From Escherichia coli (GTDB lineage Bacteria; Pseudomonadota; Gammaproteobacteria; Enterobacterales; Enterobacteriaceae): a DNA stretch of 64,000 nucleotides. The stretch lies in assembly GCF_041248615.1 (NCBI RefSeq), contig NZ_CP158426.1, one strand, 5' to 3'. The notes below the pieces were generated by a model. That model did no database searches and was not told where the DNA came from. It worked only from the letters and a program-made list of their open reading frames with translations. Shown here one piece after another: positions 28,397 through 39,158 of this stretch; position 1 is the first letter of the stretch; each line of letters opens with the position of its first letter. Position numbers and translations under genes: made by a program.

Positions 28397-30373
28397 ATGC
28401 AGCTTAATCATATCGTTAAAAGTCTGCTAATAACGGGATTATTCACCACCAGTTCTTTACCTCTCCTCGCGGCGGAAGCTCCTAAAGACGCCACCGCAGC
28501 CACGCAACAAGCAAACAATTTACTCTACAACCAGTTGCCGTTTGCCGATAACACTGACTTTACTGATGCCCATAAAGGTTTTATTGCCCCTATCCCTCAA
28601 GACGTGATTAAGGGCGAACAAGGGAATGTTATCTGGGATCCACAACATTACGCTTTTATCAAAGAAGGCGATAAAGCCCCTGATACGGTGAATCCGAGTT
28701 TATGGCGTCAGGCGCAACTGATAAATATCAGCGGGTTATTCGAAGTAACTGAAGGTGTCTATCAGATTCGCAATCTCGATCTATCAAATATGACCATCAT
28801 TGAAGGCAAAGAGGGTATTACCGTCGTTGATCCCCTTGTTTCAGCAGAAACAGCCAAAGTGGGTATGGATCTCTATTACAAAAATCGCGGCAAAAAACCG
28901 GTAGTGGCGGTTATCTATACACACAGTCATGTCGATCACTACGGTGGTGTTCGTGGCGTAATTGATGAAGCTGACGTTAAATCAGGCAAAGTTAAAATCT
29001 ATGCGCCAGCCGGATTTTTGGAGGAAGCCGTTTCCGAAAACATCATGGCTGGCAATGTTATGAGCCGACGAGCCAGTTATATGTATGGCAACTTATTGAA
29101 ACCTGATGTTAAAGGCCAGGTGGGGGCTGGACTGGGAACGACTACTTCAGCAGGAACAGTCACGTTGATTGCTCCTACTAACTACATCACCAAAACCGGA
29201 CAAAAAGAAACTATTGACGGGTTGACTTATGATTTCCTGATGGCGCCAGGTTCTGAAGCGCCTTCTGAAATGCTGTGGTTTATTGAAGAAAAGAAACTGA
29301 TCGAAACCGCTGAAGATGTCACGCACACCCTTCATAACACCTATTCGCTGCGTGGGGCTAAAATTCGCCAACCGCTGCCGTGGTCAAAATATATTAATGA
29401 AGCTCTCAATTTGTGGGGTGATAAAGCCGAGATTATTCTCGCTCAACATCACTGGCCAACCTGGGGCAACGATAACGTGGTCAAACTGCTTAAAAGCCAG
29501 CGTGATTTGTATCGTTACATCAATGATCAAACTCTGCGCATGGCTAATCAAGGGATGACCCGTGATGAAATTGCCGCAAACTTTAAACTGCCCTCTTCAC
29601 TGGCTAACACCTGGGCGAATCGCGGCTATTACGGTTCGGTAAGTCATGACGTGAAAGCAACTTACGTGCTTTATCTCGGCTGGTTTGATGGTAACCCCGC
29701 GACGCTTGATGAACTGCCGCCAGAAGAAGGCGCAAAAAAATTCGTCGAGTATATGGGCGGTGCTGATGCCATTTTACAGAAAGCCAAACAGGATTATGAC
29801 CAGGGTAATTTCCGCTGGGTTGCCCAAGTTGTTAGTAAGGTGGTGTTTGCCGATCCAAACAACCAGGCAGCGAGAGATCTGGAAGCTGATGCGCTTGAGC
29901 AGTTAGGCTATCAGGCTGAATCTGGGCCGTGGCGTAATTTCTATCTCACTGGTGCACAGGAATTGCGTAATGGCGTACAAAAATTACCAACACCAAATAC
30001 TGCCAGCCCAGACACCGTGCGTGCGATGACGCCGGAGATGTTCTTTGATTATCTTGCCGTCCATATTAATGGTGAGAAAGCGGCAGATGCCAAAACCGTG
30101 TTGAATTTCGATTTTGGTGAAGATGGCGGCACCTATAAAGTGGAGCTTGAAAATGGTGTTCTCAATCATACCGCTGGTGTAGAGGCTTCGGATGCTGATG
30201 CCACTATCACTCTGTCTCGTGATGTATTGAACAAAATTGTACTGAAAGAAGAGACGCTGAAAGAAGCCACGGCCAAAGGAGATGTCAAAATTACTGGCAA
30301 TGAGGAAAAACTCAACGAGCTGTTAGGTTATATGGATAATTTTGAATTTTGGTTCAATATAGTGACACCATAA
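28397..30373 (+). CDS. Secreted alkyl/aryl-sulfatase, SdsA1/YjcS-like (metallo-beta-lactamase fold plus SCP2-like C-terminus)
   Basis: 658 aa; signal peptide MQLNHIVKSLLITGLFTTSSLPLLAAEA; MBL motif THSHVDHYGG; overall architecture of the alkyl sulfatase family; ATG with GGAGA RBS. Confidence 0.85.
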   Translation: MQLNHIVKSLLITGLFTTSSLPLLAAEAPKDATAATQQANNLLYNQLPFADNTDFTDAHKGFIAPIPQDVIKGEQGNVIWDPQHYAFIKEGDKAPDTVNPSLWRQAQLINISGLFEVTEGVYQIRNLDLSNMTIIEGKEGITVVDPLVSAETAKVGMDLYYKNRGKKPVVAVIYTHSHVDHYGGVRGVIDEADVKSGKVKIYAPAGFLEEAVSENIMAGNVMSRRASYMYGNLLKPDVKGQVGAGLGTTTSAGTVTLIAPTNYITKTGQKETIDGLTYDFLMAPGSEAPSEMLWFIEEKKLIETAEDVTHTLHNTYSLRGAKIRQPLPWSKYINEALNLWGDKAEIILAQHHWPTWGNDNVVKLLKSQRDLYRYINDQTLRMANQGMTRDEIAANFKLPSSLANTWANRGYYGSVSHDVKATYVLYLGWFDGNPATLDELPPEEGAKKFVEYMGGADAILQKAKQDYDQGNFRWVAQVVSKVVFADPNNQAARDLEADALEQLGYQAESGPWRNFYLTGAQELRNGVQKLPTPNTASPDTVRAMTPEMFFDYLAVHINGEKAADAKTVLNFDFGEDGGTYKVELENGVLNHTAGVEASDADATITLSRDVLNKIVLKEETLKEATAKGDVKITGNEEKLNELLGYMDNFEFWFNIVTP

Positions 30374-30385
30374 ATTTACTGCATA

Positions 30386-30410
30386 CCGGGCAGGTATCCT
30401 GCCCTTTTTT
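30386..30410 (+). terminator. Rho-independent terminator after the sulfatase gene
   Basis: Stem gggcagg/cctgccc with 3-nt loop followed by TTTTTT. Confidence 0.6.
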
Positions 30411-30419
30411 GGTTAAAAA

Positions 30420-31517
30420 ATGGCTGAACGAAGAAAAACGCATCACTCATGGAAAACCCGCCGCGATATGGTTATTCGCGGCATGACGATTAGTTTGCCA
30501 TGGTTTGCTTTTATCAATGTCAGTTTTGCATTGATAATTTTGCTGCGCCGTGTTCTGTTTAATGACCTTACTCCACCCTGGTTAAATGAAAAAAGCCTTA
30601 TACATTCTATTGATATATCTGCAACGGGTATTCTGCTGATTTGCAGTGGTTTACTACTCATCCCTCGGCAAAAAACATTACCTATCCAGGTGCTATTAGT
30701 TGCCCTGAGCCTGCTATGGTCATGGTGTAGTTATCACTTTATTGCGTACTGGACGCTGCAGTTTGCTTATCCACTATGTGTATTATTAATGCTTAGTGGC
30801 GTTGTCGCACTTTATTTCCATACCCCATCATTGCTCGCATTTGTCATTCCCTTATGGTTCACCACTCCAATAGCGAGTCTTATGCTTAATCAACAGATCA
30901 ATATTCATTTTGCTGTTGTATGGTGTATTTTTTCACTGGCGCTATATGGTGGGCGACTCATTTTGTTACGTTGGTTTGAAGAAGCATGGGTACAAAACAG
31001 TTATAACAACCAGTTAATTAATCGCCTTGATGCATTAGCACATCGTGATCCTTTAACTGGGATAGCAAACCGACGTGCAATGAACAGTATCTTACACGAC
31101 GCGATGGATAACGGCGGGTCATTTGCTCTTATTATGCTGGATGTCGATTTTTTTAAACGTTACAACGACACTTACGGGCATCCTGCTGGGGATCGTTGTC
31201 TAATACAAGTTGCCGACGCTCTACAGCGTTCAACTCGCCAGTCGGAGGATGTTGTTGTCCGTTATGGTGGCGAAGAGTTTGCCATCATACTTTTTAATGC
31301 AACATTGCCGGAAGCAGAGACGGTAGCAGCCAGAGTGAAGCAAGAACTTAAACTGGCAGCTATCCCACATCAGGCATCTGCTGTTAATGCATTTGTTACG
31401 GTTAGTCAGGGGATTACCTGTTCTGCTCCCGCAAAAACGGCTGAACAAATTATTTCAGATGCCGACGCTGCGTTATACCGGGCGAAAGAAAGTGGGCGAA
31501 ATCGATGGGCTTTATAA
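30420..31517 (+). CDS. Membrane-anchored diguanylate cyclase (GGDEF domain)
   Basis: N-terminal about 190 aa with multiple hydrophobic TM segments, C-terminal GGDEF domain with active-site motif RYGGEEF; start codon uncertain (ATG 30420 lies only 10 nt after a terminator; alternative in-frame ATGs at 30468 and 30483). Confidence 0.8.
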   Translation: MAERRKTHHSWKTRRDMVIRGMTISLPWFAFINVSFALIILLRRVLFNDLTPPWLNEKSLIHSIDISATGILLICSGLLLIPRQKTLPIQVLLVALSLLWSWCSYHFIAYWTLQFAYPLCVLLMLSGVVALYFHTPSLLAFVIPLWFTTPIASLMLNQQINIHFAVVWCIFSLALYGGRLILLRWFEEAWVQNSYNNQLINRLDALAHRDPLTGIANRRAMNSILHDAMDNGGSFALIMLDVDFFKRYNDTYGHPAGDRCLIQVADALQRSTRQSEDVVVRYGGEEFAIILFNATLPEAETVAARVKQELKLAAIPHQASAVNAFVTVSQGITCSAPAKTAEQIISDADAALYRAKESGRNRWAL

Positions 31518-31590: not shown

Positions 31591-32142
31591 CTATCTTCTT
31601 AGCGATGTCTTTCTGGTATCACATTGGATCGGTGCAATTATTTTTCCTTTAATACCCATTATGTTAAGAAATTCAGAAACAGCTGTAATCTCATTGTTTT
31701 TTTCATTCGTCTTGATCTTCCAAGGAATCTGACTGTGCATTATTGAGAACACACTAATAACGTGAATCGCTCCCTTGCGACGACTCTTGTCATAAGAGTA
31801 CCGGAGCGTTTTTCCATCAATTGCAATGACGTCTTTATCATCTGAAGAATGGCAGTCAAGCATCCAGTTAATAAAGCACTCATGAAATTTTTCAGGACTG
31901 ATACAGGATACAACTCTGGCAATGGTATCGTGAACAGGAATACCATTATCAAAATCACCATATTGCTTCAAAAAATCGAGATGTGTTTCCCCAAAATCCT
32001 CTATATCTTCCCAGCCTTCTGCACCCGAAATAACGGCACAAATAGTCAACAGTAGAATATCCGATAATTTATGTTCCACTTTCCAGGCTTGTCTGTAATC
32101 GGGGATAATAGAAATATGTCCCATCAATTTTTTAAGTTCCAT
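31591..32142 (-). pseudogene. ISAs1-family (H-repeat) transposase, N-terminal fragment only (3'-truncated remnant)
   Basis: 183-aa ORF aligning to the N-terminal half of the second H-repeat transposase in this window (shared ...DYRQxWK...AEGWEDIxDFGExHL...GxPxHxTIARV...AIDGKxLR...); remainder absent; upstream end shares the ISAs1 terminal region with the other copy. Confidence 0.75.
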
Positions 32143-32727
32143 TTTGTTCTCCTTAATTATGTAAGGAGTATTTGATCATGTATACGCAATAAAAAACAGC
32201 TTCAGGTAATGAGGAATATCTCAATTGTTAAACATAAAATGCGAATTGTCTAGTACAAAAAAGCAGCGTTACGTGATCTTTCCGTGGATCGTCAAATTGT
32301 TCGAGAGAAAATACCAACATGATGGATTTTACTGTAAAAGTAATGTCGTAGTTTAAAAACTCATCATCCGGTAAAGCCTTGTGGGGCGTGGGCTTTCATA
32401 CTTTTACCCTGATGTCTGCTATACGCCGGACACCCTTTACGTAGCATTCGGAATTCACCCGTAAATTTATCACGGCGGTATCACGAAACCTCCGGTTCTG
32501 ATGCCGCTTAGGACTAACGACACGTCAACACAGGTTCGGGTTTATTCATTTCACTGTATCTCATATAATCTGAGCACTCCCCCTGCGCTCGCTACTATGA
32601 CTCTTTACCACAGCAACCGGGGTTGTTTGGGATCGGCTTTCAACAGCAGATCCCGGTGGCTATTGCAAGTAAGTCTACTTTCCACATCAGTGTTACTGAC
32701 ACAGAAAATAATGAGTTATGATCCTTG

Positions 32728-33213
32728 TCATATTTTTAATATAGCCCCATGAGCTATAGGATCAAAACCTTCTAACCATGAGGTGTTTTTATCGAATAAT
32801 GCACCTGTTATATTTATATCGCCATATCTATCACATAATAAATTAGCGCCACATAAGTCAGCACCAGAAAAATTTGAATCTTTAACGTCTGCATTGCAAA
32901 AGGTTGAATTAGTTAATATAGCACCCTCAAAGTTTGCACCTATTGACCTTGAATTACTAAAGTCACTTCCAGTGAAATCTGAGTTATTAAGAATAGCGTT
33001 CATCAGAGCCGCATTGCGAAAGACAGCATTTCTAGTTGATGTATGTTGAATCATTACATTTCTTAAATGGGAATTTTCAAATTTCGCCCCATCAAGACAA
33101 TAACCATTGAGGATGGCACGATGTAGATCCATCCCGCTAAAATCATATCCAGCAAGAGTGGTACTATCTATATCAAGAAATTTATTGGTTATTAAAAACG
33201 CGATTCTTATCAT
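32728..33213 (-). CDS. Pentapeptide-repeat protein, candidate Rhs immunity protein
   Basis: 161 aa with about 20 consecutive pentapeptide repeats (central L/F every fifth residue, e.g. [20 protein letters not shown]); AT-rich; start overlaps the Rhs stop codon (ATGA). Confidence 0.8.
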
Positions 33214-36200
33214 CTATTCCCCCAATCATCTAACTCCGGAAAAATTTGGCTAAACGGATATAGTGGTGCCGATAATGGACGCGTACCTGGCCGCTCAGGA
33301 GGAAGTTTATCACATAACAGACCCGCAACCATCCTGTGATTACCATTAACAATCACATTCCCATCCATATCAACCGGTGGTGCTCCACTACCATCTTCCA
33401 GCATTTGTACGTAGTGAGCTACTACGGGTACTGAGACTTTTTGTTGTACTGTCAACAAGGGACTGTTGGCCACAACCATCCTGATGTTTTCAGGTGTCGT
33501 AGGTAAACATTTAGTCTTCTCTTGACTAAAGGTATCATCCCACAATTTTGTTAAACCCATCACTGCCTGTTGTCTGTATTTATCCATGGGGTCAGCAATC
33601 AACCAAGATGGACCTGACTGCTCTATGGAATCTTCTCCGGAGAGACCCAACGGATCTATCTTAGTAGTTGGATTCAATGGATACTGATACAGGTTCCATG
33701 CACCTCTTAGCCCAATGGGATCCTGGGTGATATACCGCCCCTGCAACGGGTCATAGTACCGGTTGCGGTTATAGTACAGCCCCGACTCCTCATCATACTG
33801 CTGCCCCGGCAGACGGTACGGCTGTTGCAGTTGCTGCGCGCTGGTTTCGCCCAGCAGGTTTCCCCACTCGTCATACTCCCCCTGCCACGCCGTTTCCCCT
33901 TCCGGGCTGATGAGCGCCTGCGGCAGCCCCCGGTGGTCGCAGTGGTAAAGATGAAGTGTCCTCTCCGGGATGTATTCCGCCTCCATCTGGTTTTTCATCT
34001 GTTCCGCCGTCAGCCCGCACTGCTGAAGCCATGCCTCACTCTCCGCACTCACCGCACCCGCGCGCAGTTCCCGCTCCAGCCTCCCCAGCATCACCGACAG
34101 CTCCGCCGGTAGCGTCACCCCCGTGTCCTCCTGCAACACCTCCGCCAGACTCCGGTGCCGCGCCTTCGCCTGTTCACCATTCTCTGTTTCGATTCTGATG
34201 AGCGGCGTGAAGCTCCCCGGCTGGTATACCGTCTGGATACGCGTGGTGCCGGTCTGTACCGTCGTCAGCCTGTCACCGTCCCACCCGTACCAGGTCTCCT
34301 CCGGTTTACGCGACAGCGACATCCACCCCGTCAGGTCACGCTCCCGCCGCCACACCCGTTTCCCCGTCCGGCGGCCCAGCGGGTCATAGAGGTAGCGGCT
34401 CTCCACCTGTGGCTCGCCGTGCTGTATCCGCGTGTAGAACACCAGGCGGTGCTGGCTGTCGTAATGGTAGTGGTGCGTCCGCTCGTCGTGCATCCGTATC
34501 ACCCCTTCCGGGATACGGTCCGTCTTCTCCGCCAGCCTGCCGTATTCATCGTAGCGGTAGACATAGTGCGCATCTTCCGTGATGCGGTTATCCGGCCACG
34601 CCGTGAAGGTGCTGTCCGGGTGCAGTTCCGGGTCCGGCAGCCGGTTTCCTGCCGGGTCCGTCGCATACGGGATATCGATATCCAGGTTCGCCGCCGTGGT
34701 GTGAACGCCCGTCAGTCTTCCCGTGTCGCTGTAACGGTACTTCCGGCTCTCCTGCGGGCCGCTGATGCGCACCAGTTGCCCGTTATCGTTCCACGTATAC
34801 TCACGGTCAAGCTGCGGAAGGTTCAGGTGCCTGCTCCGGAGCTGCCCTGTGAGGGTGTACGCCGTGGCCTGTTCGTACCCCGCTGTACTGCCCGCCCCGC
34901 CGAAGCTGCGGGCCGTCTCACGGTGCAGCCGGTCCCGCGTGTACTCGACCAGCGGCGTTCCGCCCAGCTTCATCCCCGCAAGATAACCGCTGCCATACGT
35001 CAGCCACTCCACCGGCGGCAGACCGTCCGGCTCCTGACGGGTCGCCAGCCCCTGTTCGCTGTAGACGTGCCTCGTCTCATGCTCCCACAGCATCTCCCCC
35101 GTCTCCTGGTTCTCCACCGTCTGCCGTTCGCCCGTCAGGCGGCCTTTATCGTCATAGCCGTAGTGGACCGCCACACGGTGGCCTTCGCTCAGGTGGCTGA
35201 TTTCTGTCAGCCAGCCGTGGTCGTCATACTGCCACTGCTCCGCCGGGTCGCCGTTCACCGTCCGGTGCGTGATGCGCCCGGCGTCATCGTAGTACCACTG
35301 CGTGACCTGCCCCTCATCCTCGCTGCGGATGAGCTGCCCTGTGGCGCTGTACCGGTAACGCTGTGTCCTGCCGTCAAAGCCGCGCTGCTCCGTCAGCCTG
35401 TCCACCGGGTCATACCGGAACGTGGACTGGCTGCCGTTCTCGTTGGTCAGCACGGTGATGCGCCCGGCGGCGTCATACTCCATGCTGCGCGTCAGTCCGC
35501 CCTGCGTGGTGCTGACGGCCTTTCCCCACGCATCATACTGTGTCTCACTCCGGCTGCCGTTCGGGGCAATGATAGCGGTGAGGTCGCCTGCGGCGCTGTA
35601 CTCATAACGGGTTTCACGTCCCTGCGCATCCTTCTGACTGACCAGTTGACCACGCGGGTTATAACTGCTGTAAGTGCTGATGCCTTCCTCCCGGTGAACC
35701 GCCGTCCTCTGACCGTACCGGTCGTATTCATACCGCGTCGTGTACCCTGAACAGTCCGTAAATGCCTGAAGCTGACCGTACCGGTTTCGCGTTATTCTCC
35801 GCCTCACCCCGGTTCCGTCTTCCACCGCACAGGGCAGGCCACTGCGGGAAGAATCATAAAACCAGCGCGTAATGTTACCGTTGCGCGAGACCTCTTCCGC
35901 CAGCCTGCCCTGACGGTCATATTTCCGGCTGCGGCGCAGCCCGTCCGGGTACGTCACTGACGTCAGTTGCAACTGGTTGTTGTAACCATACCGTACCGTC
36001 CTGCCGTCCGGCAGTATCACTGAAGTCAGCTTTCCCGACGCCATATGCAGCCGGTACTCCGTCCGCCGTCCCGCCGCATCCGTCTGCGCCTTCAGCCTCC
36101 CCGCCTCATCATACTCGCTGCGGGTGATGCTCCCGTCCCCATACTCCTTCTTCACCACCCGCTTCAGGCCGCCCTCGCCCTCCGTGTACAGCACCTCCCG

Positions 36201-37421
36201 CCGGTTCAGGCTGTCCGTGATGGTCACGCGGTCCTGCCCGTACTCAAAGCGGTAGTCCAGCCCCTCCGGGTTGACCTGCTCCGTCACCCGACCGGTATCA
36301 TCATACCGGTAGCGGCTCTCCGGCCTCCCCGCATAATGGTGCGCCACCATCCGCCCGGCGTGCTCCGCATCATAAGTAAACCCGCGCACCTGCGTCCCGC
36401 TGCGGTCATACACCGCCCGCAGTTCTCCGCTGGCCGTGTACGTGTAGCGCGCCAGCGGCGCAGTCGGCAGTTCATCCGGGTATGCCGGGTCGTGTGTCAG
36501 CCATACCGCCTCCAGCCGGATACCGTTATCGGCACCGTACTCTGTACCGGTGGGCAGCGTGTCGGGGAAAAACTGAGAAGAGGAAACAGAACGGGGACTG
36601 GCCGGAGAAGATAAAGAAGACTCGCGCTGTTTACGGAAGGCTTTCGCCCGCTGCGCCTGTGTGGTCAGCGCCAGATGAAAACGGCGGCCCGCGCCGTCCG
36701 TCACCCCCGTCACCGCGCCCGCCGCTTCCCCCTCTGCCGCCCGGTGGAAGGCCAGCGTCCGCCCGAAGCCGTCCACCACGCCCGTCAGCACCCGGTATGC
36801 GGGCGGCTCCGGCGGCAGCACCTCGTCCGCCTCCGGCACCCGCTCCGGCCAGCCGAGTATCCACCACGGCCCCTGAAGGCTGTTTGTCGCCAGGTACACA
36901 TGCGGGCTTAAGCGGAGACTCTCCGGCAGCACCTGCCAGAGCGCGCTTAGCGGCTGCGAACTGTGCTGCTCCGCCACCCCGCCCCTTGCCAGCCAGAACG
37001 ACTCGCTGCGGCTGTAGCTTATCTCGCCGGGAAACAGCGGCTCAAAGTGAATGCTCCTGCCGCCACTGTCGTTGAGTATCAGTTCCCGCTCATGAACCTG
37101 TAAGCGGATATCGAAGGGCGCTTTCCAGCCGGGACCAAACACCCCCACCGGCGCGGGTGTCCTGGTCCGGTAGCTGCTGTAGGCGCGGGAAAGAATAAAC
37201 GGCAACGGGCCGGGCAGCGCAAGATCCGTCTCGCCCGGCAGCACCTTCGCACCCAGTAGCGGGTTCACCGGGTTACCCTTCTGCTCCTCCACCGGGCTGT
37301 TGGGACACACCGAGCAGGCCACTCCCGTCGGCGCACCTATCAGCACCCCCGCTGAACCCTGCACAATATCCAGTCCCTTGCGGGTCATATCGCCCTGTCG
37401 CGCCGCCGGTTTTCCGCTCAT
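33210..37421 (-). CDS. Full-length Rhs family protein (YD-repeat shell) with a variable C-terminal toxin domain
   Basis: 1403 aa; N-terminus [13 protein letters not shown]... and YD repeats closely resemble E. coli RhsA-type core; PxxxxDPxGL demarcation motif ([10 protein letters not shown]) followed by a 143-aa low-GC tip (33210-33641). Confidence 0.92.
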
Positions 37422-37831
37422 GGTTTATTCCTTAAATTATTTATGGTTTTATTCTGAGTGCAATCCATACTGATTCATAACCAGTGAATAAGATTTCCCC
37501 GAATAATCTATATAAATTAGCGAAGTCCTCTTCACTAATTAACCGTAAAATCCCGTACCAATGAAATATAAAAATAACCACCCACACAAATTTATTGCAA
37601 ATATTATTTATTATTGTATATACATCATTCACTGAACGTTCTCAAACTGCATACCTTAGAACCATCAATTAAAGCCACAACAAAAAAAATCGATTACTTT
37701 ATGTCGCATGACAAATATGAATTACATATTAATCAACCTTAAAAACAATCATCTCTTATAATTAACAGCATACCATGAGAAACACAAAATCAATTTACCA
37801 TGCATACCAGGAGCATAATTAACCTCTCACC

Positions 37832-39158
37832 GCAGGGCGAAATCATGAAGGCCCGCAGCCAGCAAGGATTAGAGAAAGGTATTCATTCTTACGTCCTGCC
37901 CGCTTTTGCTTGCGTTTAATACCCGCTTTAAAGCTATTCTCTGCGGTCAGTAAATTCATCGCGATATGTCGACAAACTGCCAGATTTTCTCCCGCTTCTC
38001 CACGAACAATCTGGCATTCATCTTCCCGCATCCCCATATCAAGTCGCCAGTGCAGTTGATTTTCTACCGACCAGTGTGCTCGTGTTGCTTCCAGGAGTTC
38101 TTTCGCCGTAAGCGTCACCGAACTTATGTAGTAGCGAAGAATACACTTCTCTGATTTCACCGCTGTTTCTCCTTCCTGTCTGCTCGCCAGCACTATTCCT
38201 ATCGTGCTCAGCTCTGACCATTCATAAGCTAAATCACCCAGAGCGGTTAAATCATGGCTCACAATGCAGCATCGTGTATCTTCCCGTCCATGCCCTTTTT
38301 CCTGCGTGCTGTAACTGTCATACCTCTCACCCAGCCACATTGTCGGCGAGTACCCGTTATCAAACGCCTCCGCTAATTTTCCCTGATTTCCTTTCAGCGC
38401 CAGCAGGTAACCGGCTTTCTTTTTCAGAATTTCACGGGCGATTATATGCTGGCAACCCATTGCATCCAGCGTGACCAGACACCCTTTTAATTCCAGCAAC
38501 TGGAGCCGTTCCGGGATCGCCGTTATCTCATTCGATTTTGCCCCTGTTTTCACCTGCCCCAAAACCAGACGATTTTCTGCGCTAAAAGCACTGACCCTAT
38601 GGATCACGGCATTACGTTTCGATTTATCGTAAGTACCCCGTAATGACTTACCATCAATCGCCACAACAGAGCCTTCAGACAACGTGTGACAGTCCTTCAT
38701 CTACTGGATAAAAAGGGGCTGTAATTGTTTTGCTGAAATCATTCCCATCACTCGGGCAATCGTGTGATGGGAGGGGGTGCCATTTTCAAAATCACCATAC
38801 AGGCGTAACCATTCCAGATGCTCCTCACCAAAATCAGCAATTTCTTCCCATCCTTCAGCGCCACCGATAATGGCGGTGATCGTCAGAAAAAGGATATCCG
38901 CCAGGCTGTAACTGGTTTTCCAGGACTGGCGATAATCGTGAATAATTGAAATTTGATCCAAAAGGCTTAGTCCGTTCATGGTGTGCTATCCATCAAAAAG
39001 AAAGGATAAGATCACACTGAAATAAGATGGTCAAATTGATCGAAAAAAAAGATCAACATGATGGGTTTTACGATAAAAGTAATGTCGCGATTTAAAAATT
39101 CATCATTCACCAAAGTCTTGTGGGGCGCGGGCTTTCATGCTTTTTCCCTGATACGCTA
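37832..39158 (-). mobile_element. ISAs1-family (H-repeat) insertion sequence, about 1.3 kb
   Basis: Imperfect terminal inverted repeats atcatgaaRgcccgc at both ends; carries the H-repeat transposase frame; boundaries approximate. Confidence 0.7.
37843..38979 (-). pseudogene. ISAs1-family H-repeat transposase interrupted by an in-frame amber codon
   Basis: Two adjacent ORFs (92 aa and 285 aa) in the same frame separated only by TAG at 38701-38703; together they form a roughly 378-aa DDE transposase of the H-repeat-associated family. Confidence 0.75.

Follow-up and report, generated by a model that had tools for sequence, protein, structure and literature searches.

The window, by which we mean the whole 64,000-nucleotide stretch of Escherichia coli DNA that was analysed, matches complete E. 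coli chromosomes at 100% identity and has the chromosomal order ansP, yncG, a variable island and pptA. This is the already published yncG-pptA rhs hotspot: the interval from yncG to pptA is locus 6 among the conserved E. coli rhs loci (PMC2935791), and b1455-b1461 / rhsE has likewise been given as an rhs locus (PMC3032704). Read along the minus strand, the window contains a yncG pseudogene, an ISAs1-family insertion sequence (hereafter IS A), a spacer, an rhs gene, a pentapeptide-repeat gene and a second ISAs1-family remnant, beyond which a GGDEF gene and then an alkyl-sulfatase gene lie on the plus strand (Table 1). The Rhs protein has DUF6531 at its N-terminus, its last 186 aa gave no match to Pfam, and the pentapeptide-repeat gene overlaps the stop codon of the rhs gene. 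A 63-aa open reading frame in the spacer upstream of the rhs gene had no Pfam match and no similarity to K-12 YncH. When positions 37380-37860, spanning the spacer, were used as the query in a distant-mode search, 143 genomes covered at least 80% of it, and all other sampled genomes matched its first 54 nt only, corresponding to the start of the rhs gene. On the yncG side, the 37-nt boundary of the island is found at the island edge in K-12, ATCC 25922, NGF1 and wlxctx60, where it adjoins four different cargoes; we take ATCC 25922 and NGF1 to be phylogroup-B2-type strains.

Table 1. Coordinates of the features of the rhs island, in order along the minus strand, with the basis for each.
Feature	Position in window	Strand	Basis
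Conserved 37-nt boundary of the variable rhs island, yncG side (ATACGCTACCGC...GATCTGCAC)	39151..39187		Strain comparison
IS A, complete ISAs1-family insertion sequence, 1318 bp	37833..39150	-	Alignment with L008-L010
IS A left inverted repeat, CAGGGAAAAAGCATGAAAGCCCGC on the IS strand	39127..39150	-	Matches right repeat
Transposase codons 1-92, DDE_Tnp_1_assoc N-terminal domain	38704..38979	-	ORF list; Pfam PF13808
Amber codon TAG in place of TGG (Trp93)	38701..38703	-	Sequence; relatives; 140 genomes
Transposase codons 94-378 and stop, DDE catalytic domain	37843..38700	-	ORF list; Pfam PF01609
IS A right inverted repeat, CAGGGCGAAATCATGAAGGCCCGC read inward	37833..37856	+	Matches left repeat
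AT-rich spacer (~400 bp), IS A right end to Rhs start	37434..37832	none	Carrier lineage only
Rhs core protein gene, 1403 aa	33210..37421	-	ORF list; RefSeq 'RHS element core protein'
Pentapeptide-repeat protein gene, immunity position	32728..33213	-	ORF list, RefSeq, Pfam
A', isolated left end (125 bp) of another A-type ISAs1 element, starts CAGGGTAAAAGTATGAAAGCCC	32287..32411	-	Similarity to IS A
Copy B, 5' 695 bp of a classical H-repeat (ISEc1-like)	31592..32286	-	Similarity to K-12 ydcC element

The limits of IS A were set by alignment with three related elements (L008-L010), with homology running from CAGGG to CCCTG, and these limits fall slightly inside the interval 37832-39158 to which a first, sequence-only reading of this DNA had assigned the element. 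On the yncG side, other E. coli lineages show homology from 39151 onwards. The stop codon of the transposase gene, TGA (37845-37843), lies inside the right inverted repeat, and with the internal stop read through the transposase is 378 aa long, with DDE_Tnp_1_assoc (PF13808) at residues 8-94 (E 5.8e-29) and DDE_Tnp_1 (PF01609) at residues 102-343. There is no target-site duplication at IS A, the sequence at 37825-37832 being TCTCACCG and that at 39151-39158 ATACGCTA, so that IS A may have reached this spot by a route other than simple transposition. Little can be concluded from this absence, as the two flanks of the ISEc1 copies listed for strain 28Eco12 do not match each other either (PMC6963479). 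No genome with the same flanks minus the element was found, and no empty site can be defined since the 400-bp right flank is unique to the genomes that carry IS A (carriers). IS A may have arrived together with the island.

The IS A transposase scored 386.7 bits against NF033564 transpos_ISAs1 (cutoff 70), aligning with model positions 1-314 of 314, and it retains the acidic DDE residues D109, which is invariant, and D172 and E306, which are nearly invariant, as its putative catalytic residues. ISAs1-family elements are 1.2-1.5 kb in size, with a single ORF and terminal inverted repeats that start with CAGGG, and IS A has all of these traits, with a length of 1318 bp and inverted repeats (CAGGG...CCCTG) that match at 20 of 24 positions. 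Together with the Pfam domain pair, these scores, well above the curated cutoffs, identify IS A as an ISAs1-family element, in agreement with the sequence-only reading.

The closest relatives of IS A are P0001-P0007 and the loci L008-L010, uncharacterised ISAs1-family elements from metagenome and SRA assemblies. They resemble IS A in their termini, their 5' leader and a 378-codon ORF without indels, at 76-83% protein identity, but they are intact, with TGG at codon 93, and their coding DNA is 73-76% identical to that of IS A. No intact version of the IS A transposase at more than 83% identity was found among 5.8 billion protein clusters, in which matches of at least 99% were solely C-terminal fragments from E. 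coli.

The sequence-only reading had also called the upstream element an H-repeat, a description that did not survive comparison with the classical element. ISEc1/H-repeat proteins (YdcC, YhhI, YbfD) and IS A share membership of the ISAs1 family through NF033564 and the Pfam domain pair, and both elements have a single ORF ending in the right inverted repeat, CAGGG...CCCTG termini and rhs neighbours. However, the IS A protein is only 49% identical to K-12 YdcC, and its DNA aligns with the K-12 ydcC element in three short patches only, at 66-70% identity, and so lacks the close DNA identity expected of a classical H-repeat. The two also differ in length (1318 bp compared to 1291 bp for the K-12 H-rpt), in position, with IS A upstream of rhs and the ISEc1/H-repeat downstream of the immunity and dsORF region, and in the names given by PGAP, which has only the generic family name for IS A and ISEc1 or ISEc5 for H-repeat copies. 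By sequence, then, IS A is an IS species distinct from the classical H-repeat. K-12 yncI, at rhsE, is like IS A an inactivated ISAs1-family transposase fossil at the same yncG-pptA locus, but its DNA is only ~66-68% identical to either copy in the window. K-12 also has an H-repeat pseudogene at rhsC, ybfL. Unlike the K-12 H-repeat pseudogenes, the lesion in IS A is one nonsense codon in an element that is otherwise intact. The IS table for strain 28Eco12 has only ISEc1 entries under the ISAs1 family, and none of the entries examined lies at the position of IS A (PMC6963479).

On the other side of the cargo, the sequence-only reading had placed a truncated ISAs1-family copy beyond the immunity gene, and this was borne out: the ORF at 31591..32142 has 183 codons and matches only the first 142 of the 314 ISAs1 model positions. 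Over 672 nt, the corresponding element, copy B, has 91.5% identity to the K-12 ydcC element, which places it among the classical H-repeats. It breaks off after 695 of 1291 nucleotides, near codon 184 of 378, indels shift its frame near its end, and its terminus, as defined against the loci L002, L006 and L007, is degenerate (CACGG). RefSeq annotates copy B as 'frameshifted; incomplete; missing C-terminus' and the IS A gene as "ISAs1 family transposase, pseudo, internal stop"; both genes were already annotated as pseudogenes. Additionally, the IS table for 28Eco12 lists a truncated ISEc1 at 2456311-2456957 (PMC6963479), which fits the position expected for copy B, some 6.5 kb away from where IS A matches that genome.

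The two copies had also been said to share the same terminal region. The similarity itself is real, with 106 of 127 positions identical between 32287-32413 and 39026-39152, but it belongs to a separate 125-bp segment, A', and not to the end of the downstream H-repeat. A' opens with an end of the type typical of the family, and is 83% identical to the first 125 bp of IS A and in register with it. STLEFF_47 shares the truncated H-repeat and the GGDEF gene at 99.3% identity, beside other cargo, and diverges from the window at 32288, which is the H-repeat terminus within a base or two; ATCC 25922 and NGF1 have a 155-bp H-repeat left-end remnant with the same terminus as copy B; and the outer flank of A' (32412-32659) is present downstream of other E. 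coli rhs arrays that lack A'. A' is therefore separate from copy B, and the shared terminal region is the end of a third, A-type remnant that abuts the H-repeat's own terminus. Within E. coli, A'-like ends were found in the carrier lineage only. We also considered whether A' and copy B together represent a longer natural form of the H-repeat, but among 100,044 representative genomes their junction had only three matches, all by chance, in Paenibacillus, Streptococcus and a Bacteroidota MAG.

Comparison between strains shows that the island varies. Next to the 37-nt boundary lie PAAR and VgrG arrays, unrelated small ORFs or the K-12 yncH-rhsE array, depending on the strain, and in MMC-J-0091 the GGDEF gene directly adjoins yncG, without IS or Rhs. 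Six of the 145 genomes that match the region at 99% identity or more cover less than 80% of the 1801-nt query, three of which were examined. Strain U1 has lost 32615-38928, comprising the immunity gene, the rhs gene and most of IS A including the TAG, with an IS1 at the joint, and in NMBU_W05E18 the segment 37626-38938 is inverted between two copies of IS1. The locus thus does vary between strains, with breakpoints at IS ends, which supports the sequence-only reading in a different form; the single loss of the Rhs module observed, in U1, involves IS1 and not an ISAs1-family element.

Three strains, KE55, GMF065 and XJ6.1, carry an intact ISEc1 within IS A, GMF065 being assigned here by its match to the KE55-type left-end junction. 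KE55 has a full-length ISEc1, its transposase gene intact, in place of 38177-39025 of IS A. This ISEc1 meets IS A at its exact terminus on either side, and the right-hand junction lies at 38176/38177 in both KE55 and XJ6.1. XJ6.1 shares the right junction of KE55 and an almost identical ISEc1 3' half, but the 5' part of its ISEc1 is K-12-like and is preceded by a classical yncG-yncH-vgrG-rhs-dsORF array. This arrangement is best read as a crossover within ISEc1, and it is the one natural example here of H-repeats serving as portable homology, by way of the canonical ISEc1 and not of the amber-bearing element.

An A-type left end meets the left terminus of ISEc1 at one and the same nucleotide in the window, where A' adjoins the truncated copy B (32287/32286), and in KE55 and GMF065, where the left end of IS A itself adjoins an intact ISEc1. 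The KE55 ISEc1 is copy-B-like over its first ~70 nt. The classical H-repeat (ISEc1) has long been described as never seen to transpose. We consider it rather unlikely that ISEc1 has been active recently in this lineage, perhaps inserting site-specifically 125 bp inside A-type elements; alternatively, the proximal A/ISEc1 junction may have been templated, by conversion, from the distal one. A search of 100,044 representative genomes for the pattern of an A-type end joined to ISEc1 gave no relevant match.

On the model suggested by the sequence-only reading, IS A and the downstream copy would be an active pair of direct repeats through which homologous recombination deletes or exchanges the Rhs-toxin-immunity module. 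The two copies do flank the module and share the minus strand, related strains have different cargo with breakpoints at IS ends, and the crossover within canonical ISEc1 in XJ6.1 linked this rhs array to a second one. However, IS A and copy B are different IS species, with 52% protein identity and ~67% coding DNA identity, and the repeat formed by IS A and A' (127 nt at 83%) is nowhere identical for more than 14 bp. In E. coli, exchange by RecA usually needs roughly 23-27 bp of uninterrupted identity, so that the in-window pair is not a credible substrate for deletion or exchange, and no direct repeat of RecA length is present to make the module an excisable IS-flanked unit. When the predicted product of an A/A' deletion was built and used as a query against 5426 genomes, the product was found in none. 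The only end-to-end matches to this query were in KE55 and GMF065, neither of which has the predicted deletion, and KE55 keeps the rhs and immunity genes as well as the distal A' and copy B. The module loss in U1 has IS1 at its joint, and the empty locus of MMC-J-0091 has no IS remnant at all. Together, these results make it very unlikely that the two ISAs1-family copies act as such a pair.

Within IS A itself, the in-frame TAG that the sequence-only reading had reported is present and splits a single frame into ORFs of 92 and 285 aa, between the two Pfam domains. The 92-aa ORF occupies 38979-38704 and is followed by the TAG at 38703-38701, the entry in the ORF list running from 38701 to 38979. 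Codon 93 is TGG in L008, L009 and L010, implying that the lesion is a single G-to-A transition, and position 93 is Trp in 11 of 11 full-length relatives (49-83% identity) and in copy B. Met94 is family-invariant in the same 11-relative alignment, and the ATG that follows the TAG is this conserved Met94 and not a new start codon.

To determine how the TAG is distributed, we relied on the complete RefSeq genomes of E. coli (5426 genomes). A 71-nt query centred on the TAG, for which one mismatch would drop a match below the 99% band, matched 140 of these genomes (~2.6%), all at 100% identity, and no TGG variant was found. The TAG-bearing stretch occurs at one chromosomal place per genome in the 140 carriers and on none of their plasmids. 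The carriers span many countries on several continents, with people, dogs, cats, cattle, poultry, wild birds, river water and sewage as their sources, and differ from each other by no more than 0.1% in this region. Two named carriers, 28Eco12 and 266917_2, have been published as ST38 (PMC6963479), and the link of the carriers to this sequence type refers to these two strains. These results, together with the TGG or Trp of the relatives, indicate that the TAG is a real, inherited inactivating mutation, one of the explanations that the sequence-only reading had offered. Draft assemblies may yet include a basal strain with TGG.

The rest of the frame gave no indication of relaxed selection on IS A, with no excess either of private changes at invariant columns or in branch-specific counts. 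Beyond the stop, the IS A ORF has 3 private substitutions at otherwise invariant columns, compared to 0-6 in intact relatives, and the ratio of synonymous to non-synonymous changes is 66:35 on the IS A branch and 64:32 on that of the intact L008 (Fisher p 0.88). As there is no decay beyond the TAG, the stop is recent relative to the split from L008; it would be young compared to that divergence, yet old enough to have become fixed in the whole carrier group.

This lack of decay in the 285-aa ORF could also suggest that the stop is tolerated or even used, through rare readthrough of UAG or through separate production of the two halves by UAG-AUG termination-reinitiation, with the 92-aa product acting as a DNA-binding regulator. 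The TAG is placed exactly between the two Pfam domains with an ATG directly after it, and truncated transposase products do act as regulators in IS1 (InsA), IS911 (OrfA) and Tn5 (the inhibitor), to which a short N-terminal DNA-binding product of the 92-aa ORF might be compared. Those systems, however, have a programmed short product, which arises by frameshifting or from an alternative start while the full-length enzyme continues to be made. In IS A the full-length product is lost to a nonsense mutation, and there is no sign of activity: each of the 140 genomes has a single copy, and none has one on a plasmid. The ATG is merely the family-invariant Met94, with no Shine-Dalgarno-like sequence before it, and the absence of further decay is equally expected of a recent pseudogene in carriers that differ by no more than 0.1%. 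Promoter-like sites are at the level of shuffled sequence: a scan of 37300-39300 found 5, compared to a shuffled mean of 5.0, and a terminator scan of the same interval found 2 terminator-like sites, compared to 1.2. We therefore regard a tolerated or functional stop as very unlikely. A programmed split or recoded transposase was rejected on the further ground that all relatives have Trp or TGG and the stop occurs in a single near-clonal set of genomes only.

That the TAG is a sequencing or assembly error in an intact transposase, as the sequence-only reading had allowed, would require a change of only a single base from TGG in an ORF that is otherwise intact, but the same base in 140 independently sequenced complete genomes from varied hosts on several continents, with no TGG variant, leaves this virtually no chance of being correct, barring a systematic artefact common to all the sequencing platforms.

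From the structure of the elements, the fixed TAG, the presence of only one copy and the diverged repeats, all of which were observed directly, we conclude that IS A is very probably a dead, single-copy element inactivated by the TAG, that the downstream region is a nested scar, and that the remnants mark the edges of the Rhs cargo. A G-to-A transition would have changed the invariant Trp93 codon from TGG to TAG at the boundary between the N-terminal and DDE domains, probably once, with subsequent vertical inheritance in one E. coli lineage. With a TAG at codon 93 no full-length transposase would be made, and the protein is presumably non-functional. IS A thus lacks two signs of mobility, an intact transposase and more than one copy or site, since all 140 genomes have it once, on the chromosome and in one place, and it has probably not moved since the lesion arose. 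The downstream scar would be older and nested, consisting of 125 bp of an A-type element joined to the frameshifted 5' half of an ISEc1/H-repeat, so that IS A and the downstream remnants would mark both edges of the cargo formed by the rhs and immunity genes. The remnants probably record a past IS-mediated assembly of the island, and we infer that present-day turnover proceeds through IS1 and intact copies of ISEc1 and not through the pair of IS A and A'.

IS A and the downstream copy are ordinary features, already annotated as pseudogenes, and the association of ISAs1-family elements with rhs is classical. That the stop is a real, lineage-fixed lesion matters little beyond bookkeeping. In the RefSeq records examined, IS A is a distinct ISAs1-family member that goes under the generic family name only. 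The amber-bearing element and the junction of A' with the H-repeat could be used as simple markers to recognise the E. coli group to which the ST38 strains belong. The yncG-pptA hotspot also provides natural examples of turnover, namely an IS1-associated deletion, a nested ISEc1 and a crossover within ISEc1, which fit existing views of rhs loci and IS biology.

The boundary at which an A-type left end abuts the ISEc1 left terminus was the same at two places in this lineage, one in the window and one in KE55, although the A-type ends on which these two junctions lie are just 83% alike. The recurrence of one junction on such divergent ends points to either a site-specific nested insertion or a templated conversion.

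Features of the rhs island and its flanks
Feature	Sequence	Position	Strand
Alkyl/aryl-sulfatase and GGDEF genes	window	28397-31517	+
A-type end/ISEc1 junction	window	32286/32287	
Immunity-position gene	window	32728-33213	-
Rhs C-terminal end	window	33210-33770	-
IS1 insertion site in IS A (occupied in L014, L016)	window	38929-38938	
37-nt island edge	window	39151-39187	
yncG pseudogene	window	39391-39997	-
ISEc31 insertion in Rhs gene	KE55 (L017)	3177-4390	
A-type end/ISEc1 junction	KE55 (L017)	8137/8138	

The KE55 orthologue of the Rhs gene is split by ISEc31, an IS3-family element, so the Rhs module is decaying in some members of the lineage. In the sublineage of U1 and NMBU_W05E18, an IS1 has inserted toward the left end of IS A, the ISAs1-family element with the TAG-interrupted transposase, and the two junctions overlap by 10 bp. 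The insertion was followed by an IS1-associated deletion of the Rhs module in U1 and by an inversion in NMBU_W05E18.

The Rhs end of approximately 186 aa that follows the DPxGL motif is presumed to be the toxin tip. A Pfam search with this region returned no match; it contains a GNHR motif, which we take to be reminiscent of ParB/Srx-type domains. The immunity-position gene encodes a pentapeptide-repeat protein.

Toward yncG, the variable island ends at a 37-nt sequence (ATACGCTACCGC...CCCTGATAACATGATCTGCAC) common to the window, K-12, wlxctx60, and two strains presumably of phylogroup-B2 type (ATCC 25922 and NGF1), with different cargo beyond it in each. The two B2-type strains have the left end of an H-repeat adjoining this edge, 5 nt from the point contacted by IS A in the window, and in K-12 the yncH region sits between the edge and yncG. 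The yncG gene itself, a glutathione S-transferase homologue, is a pseudogene of two ORFs (168 and 53 aa) in the window. For the carrier lineage the RefSeq note reads 'frameshifted; internal stop', and for the two B2-type strains 'frameshifted'; the gene is intact in K-12, wlxctx60, MMC-J-0091, and XJ6.1.

On the opposite side, the sulfatase and diguanylate cyclase genes lie between the rhs island and pptA. This pair is found in the window lineage and some other lineages, whereas the K-12 locus lacks both genes and pptA directly follows ydcC.
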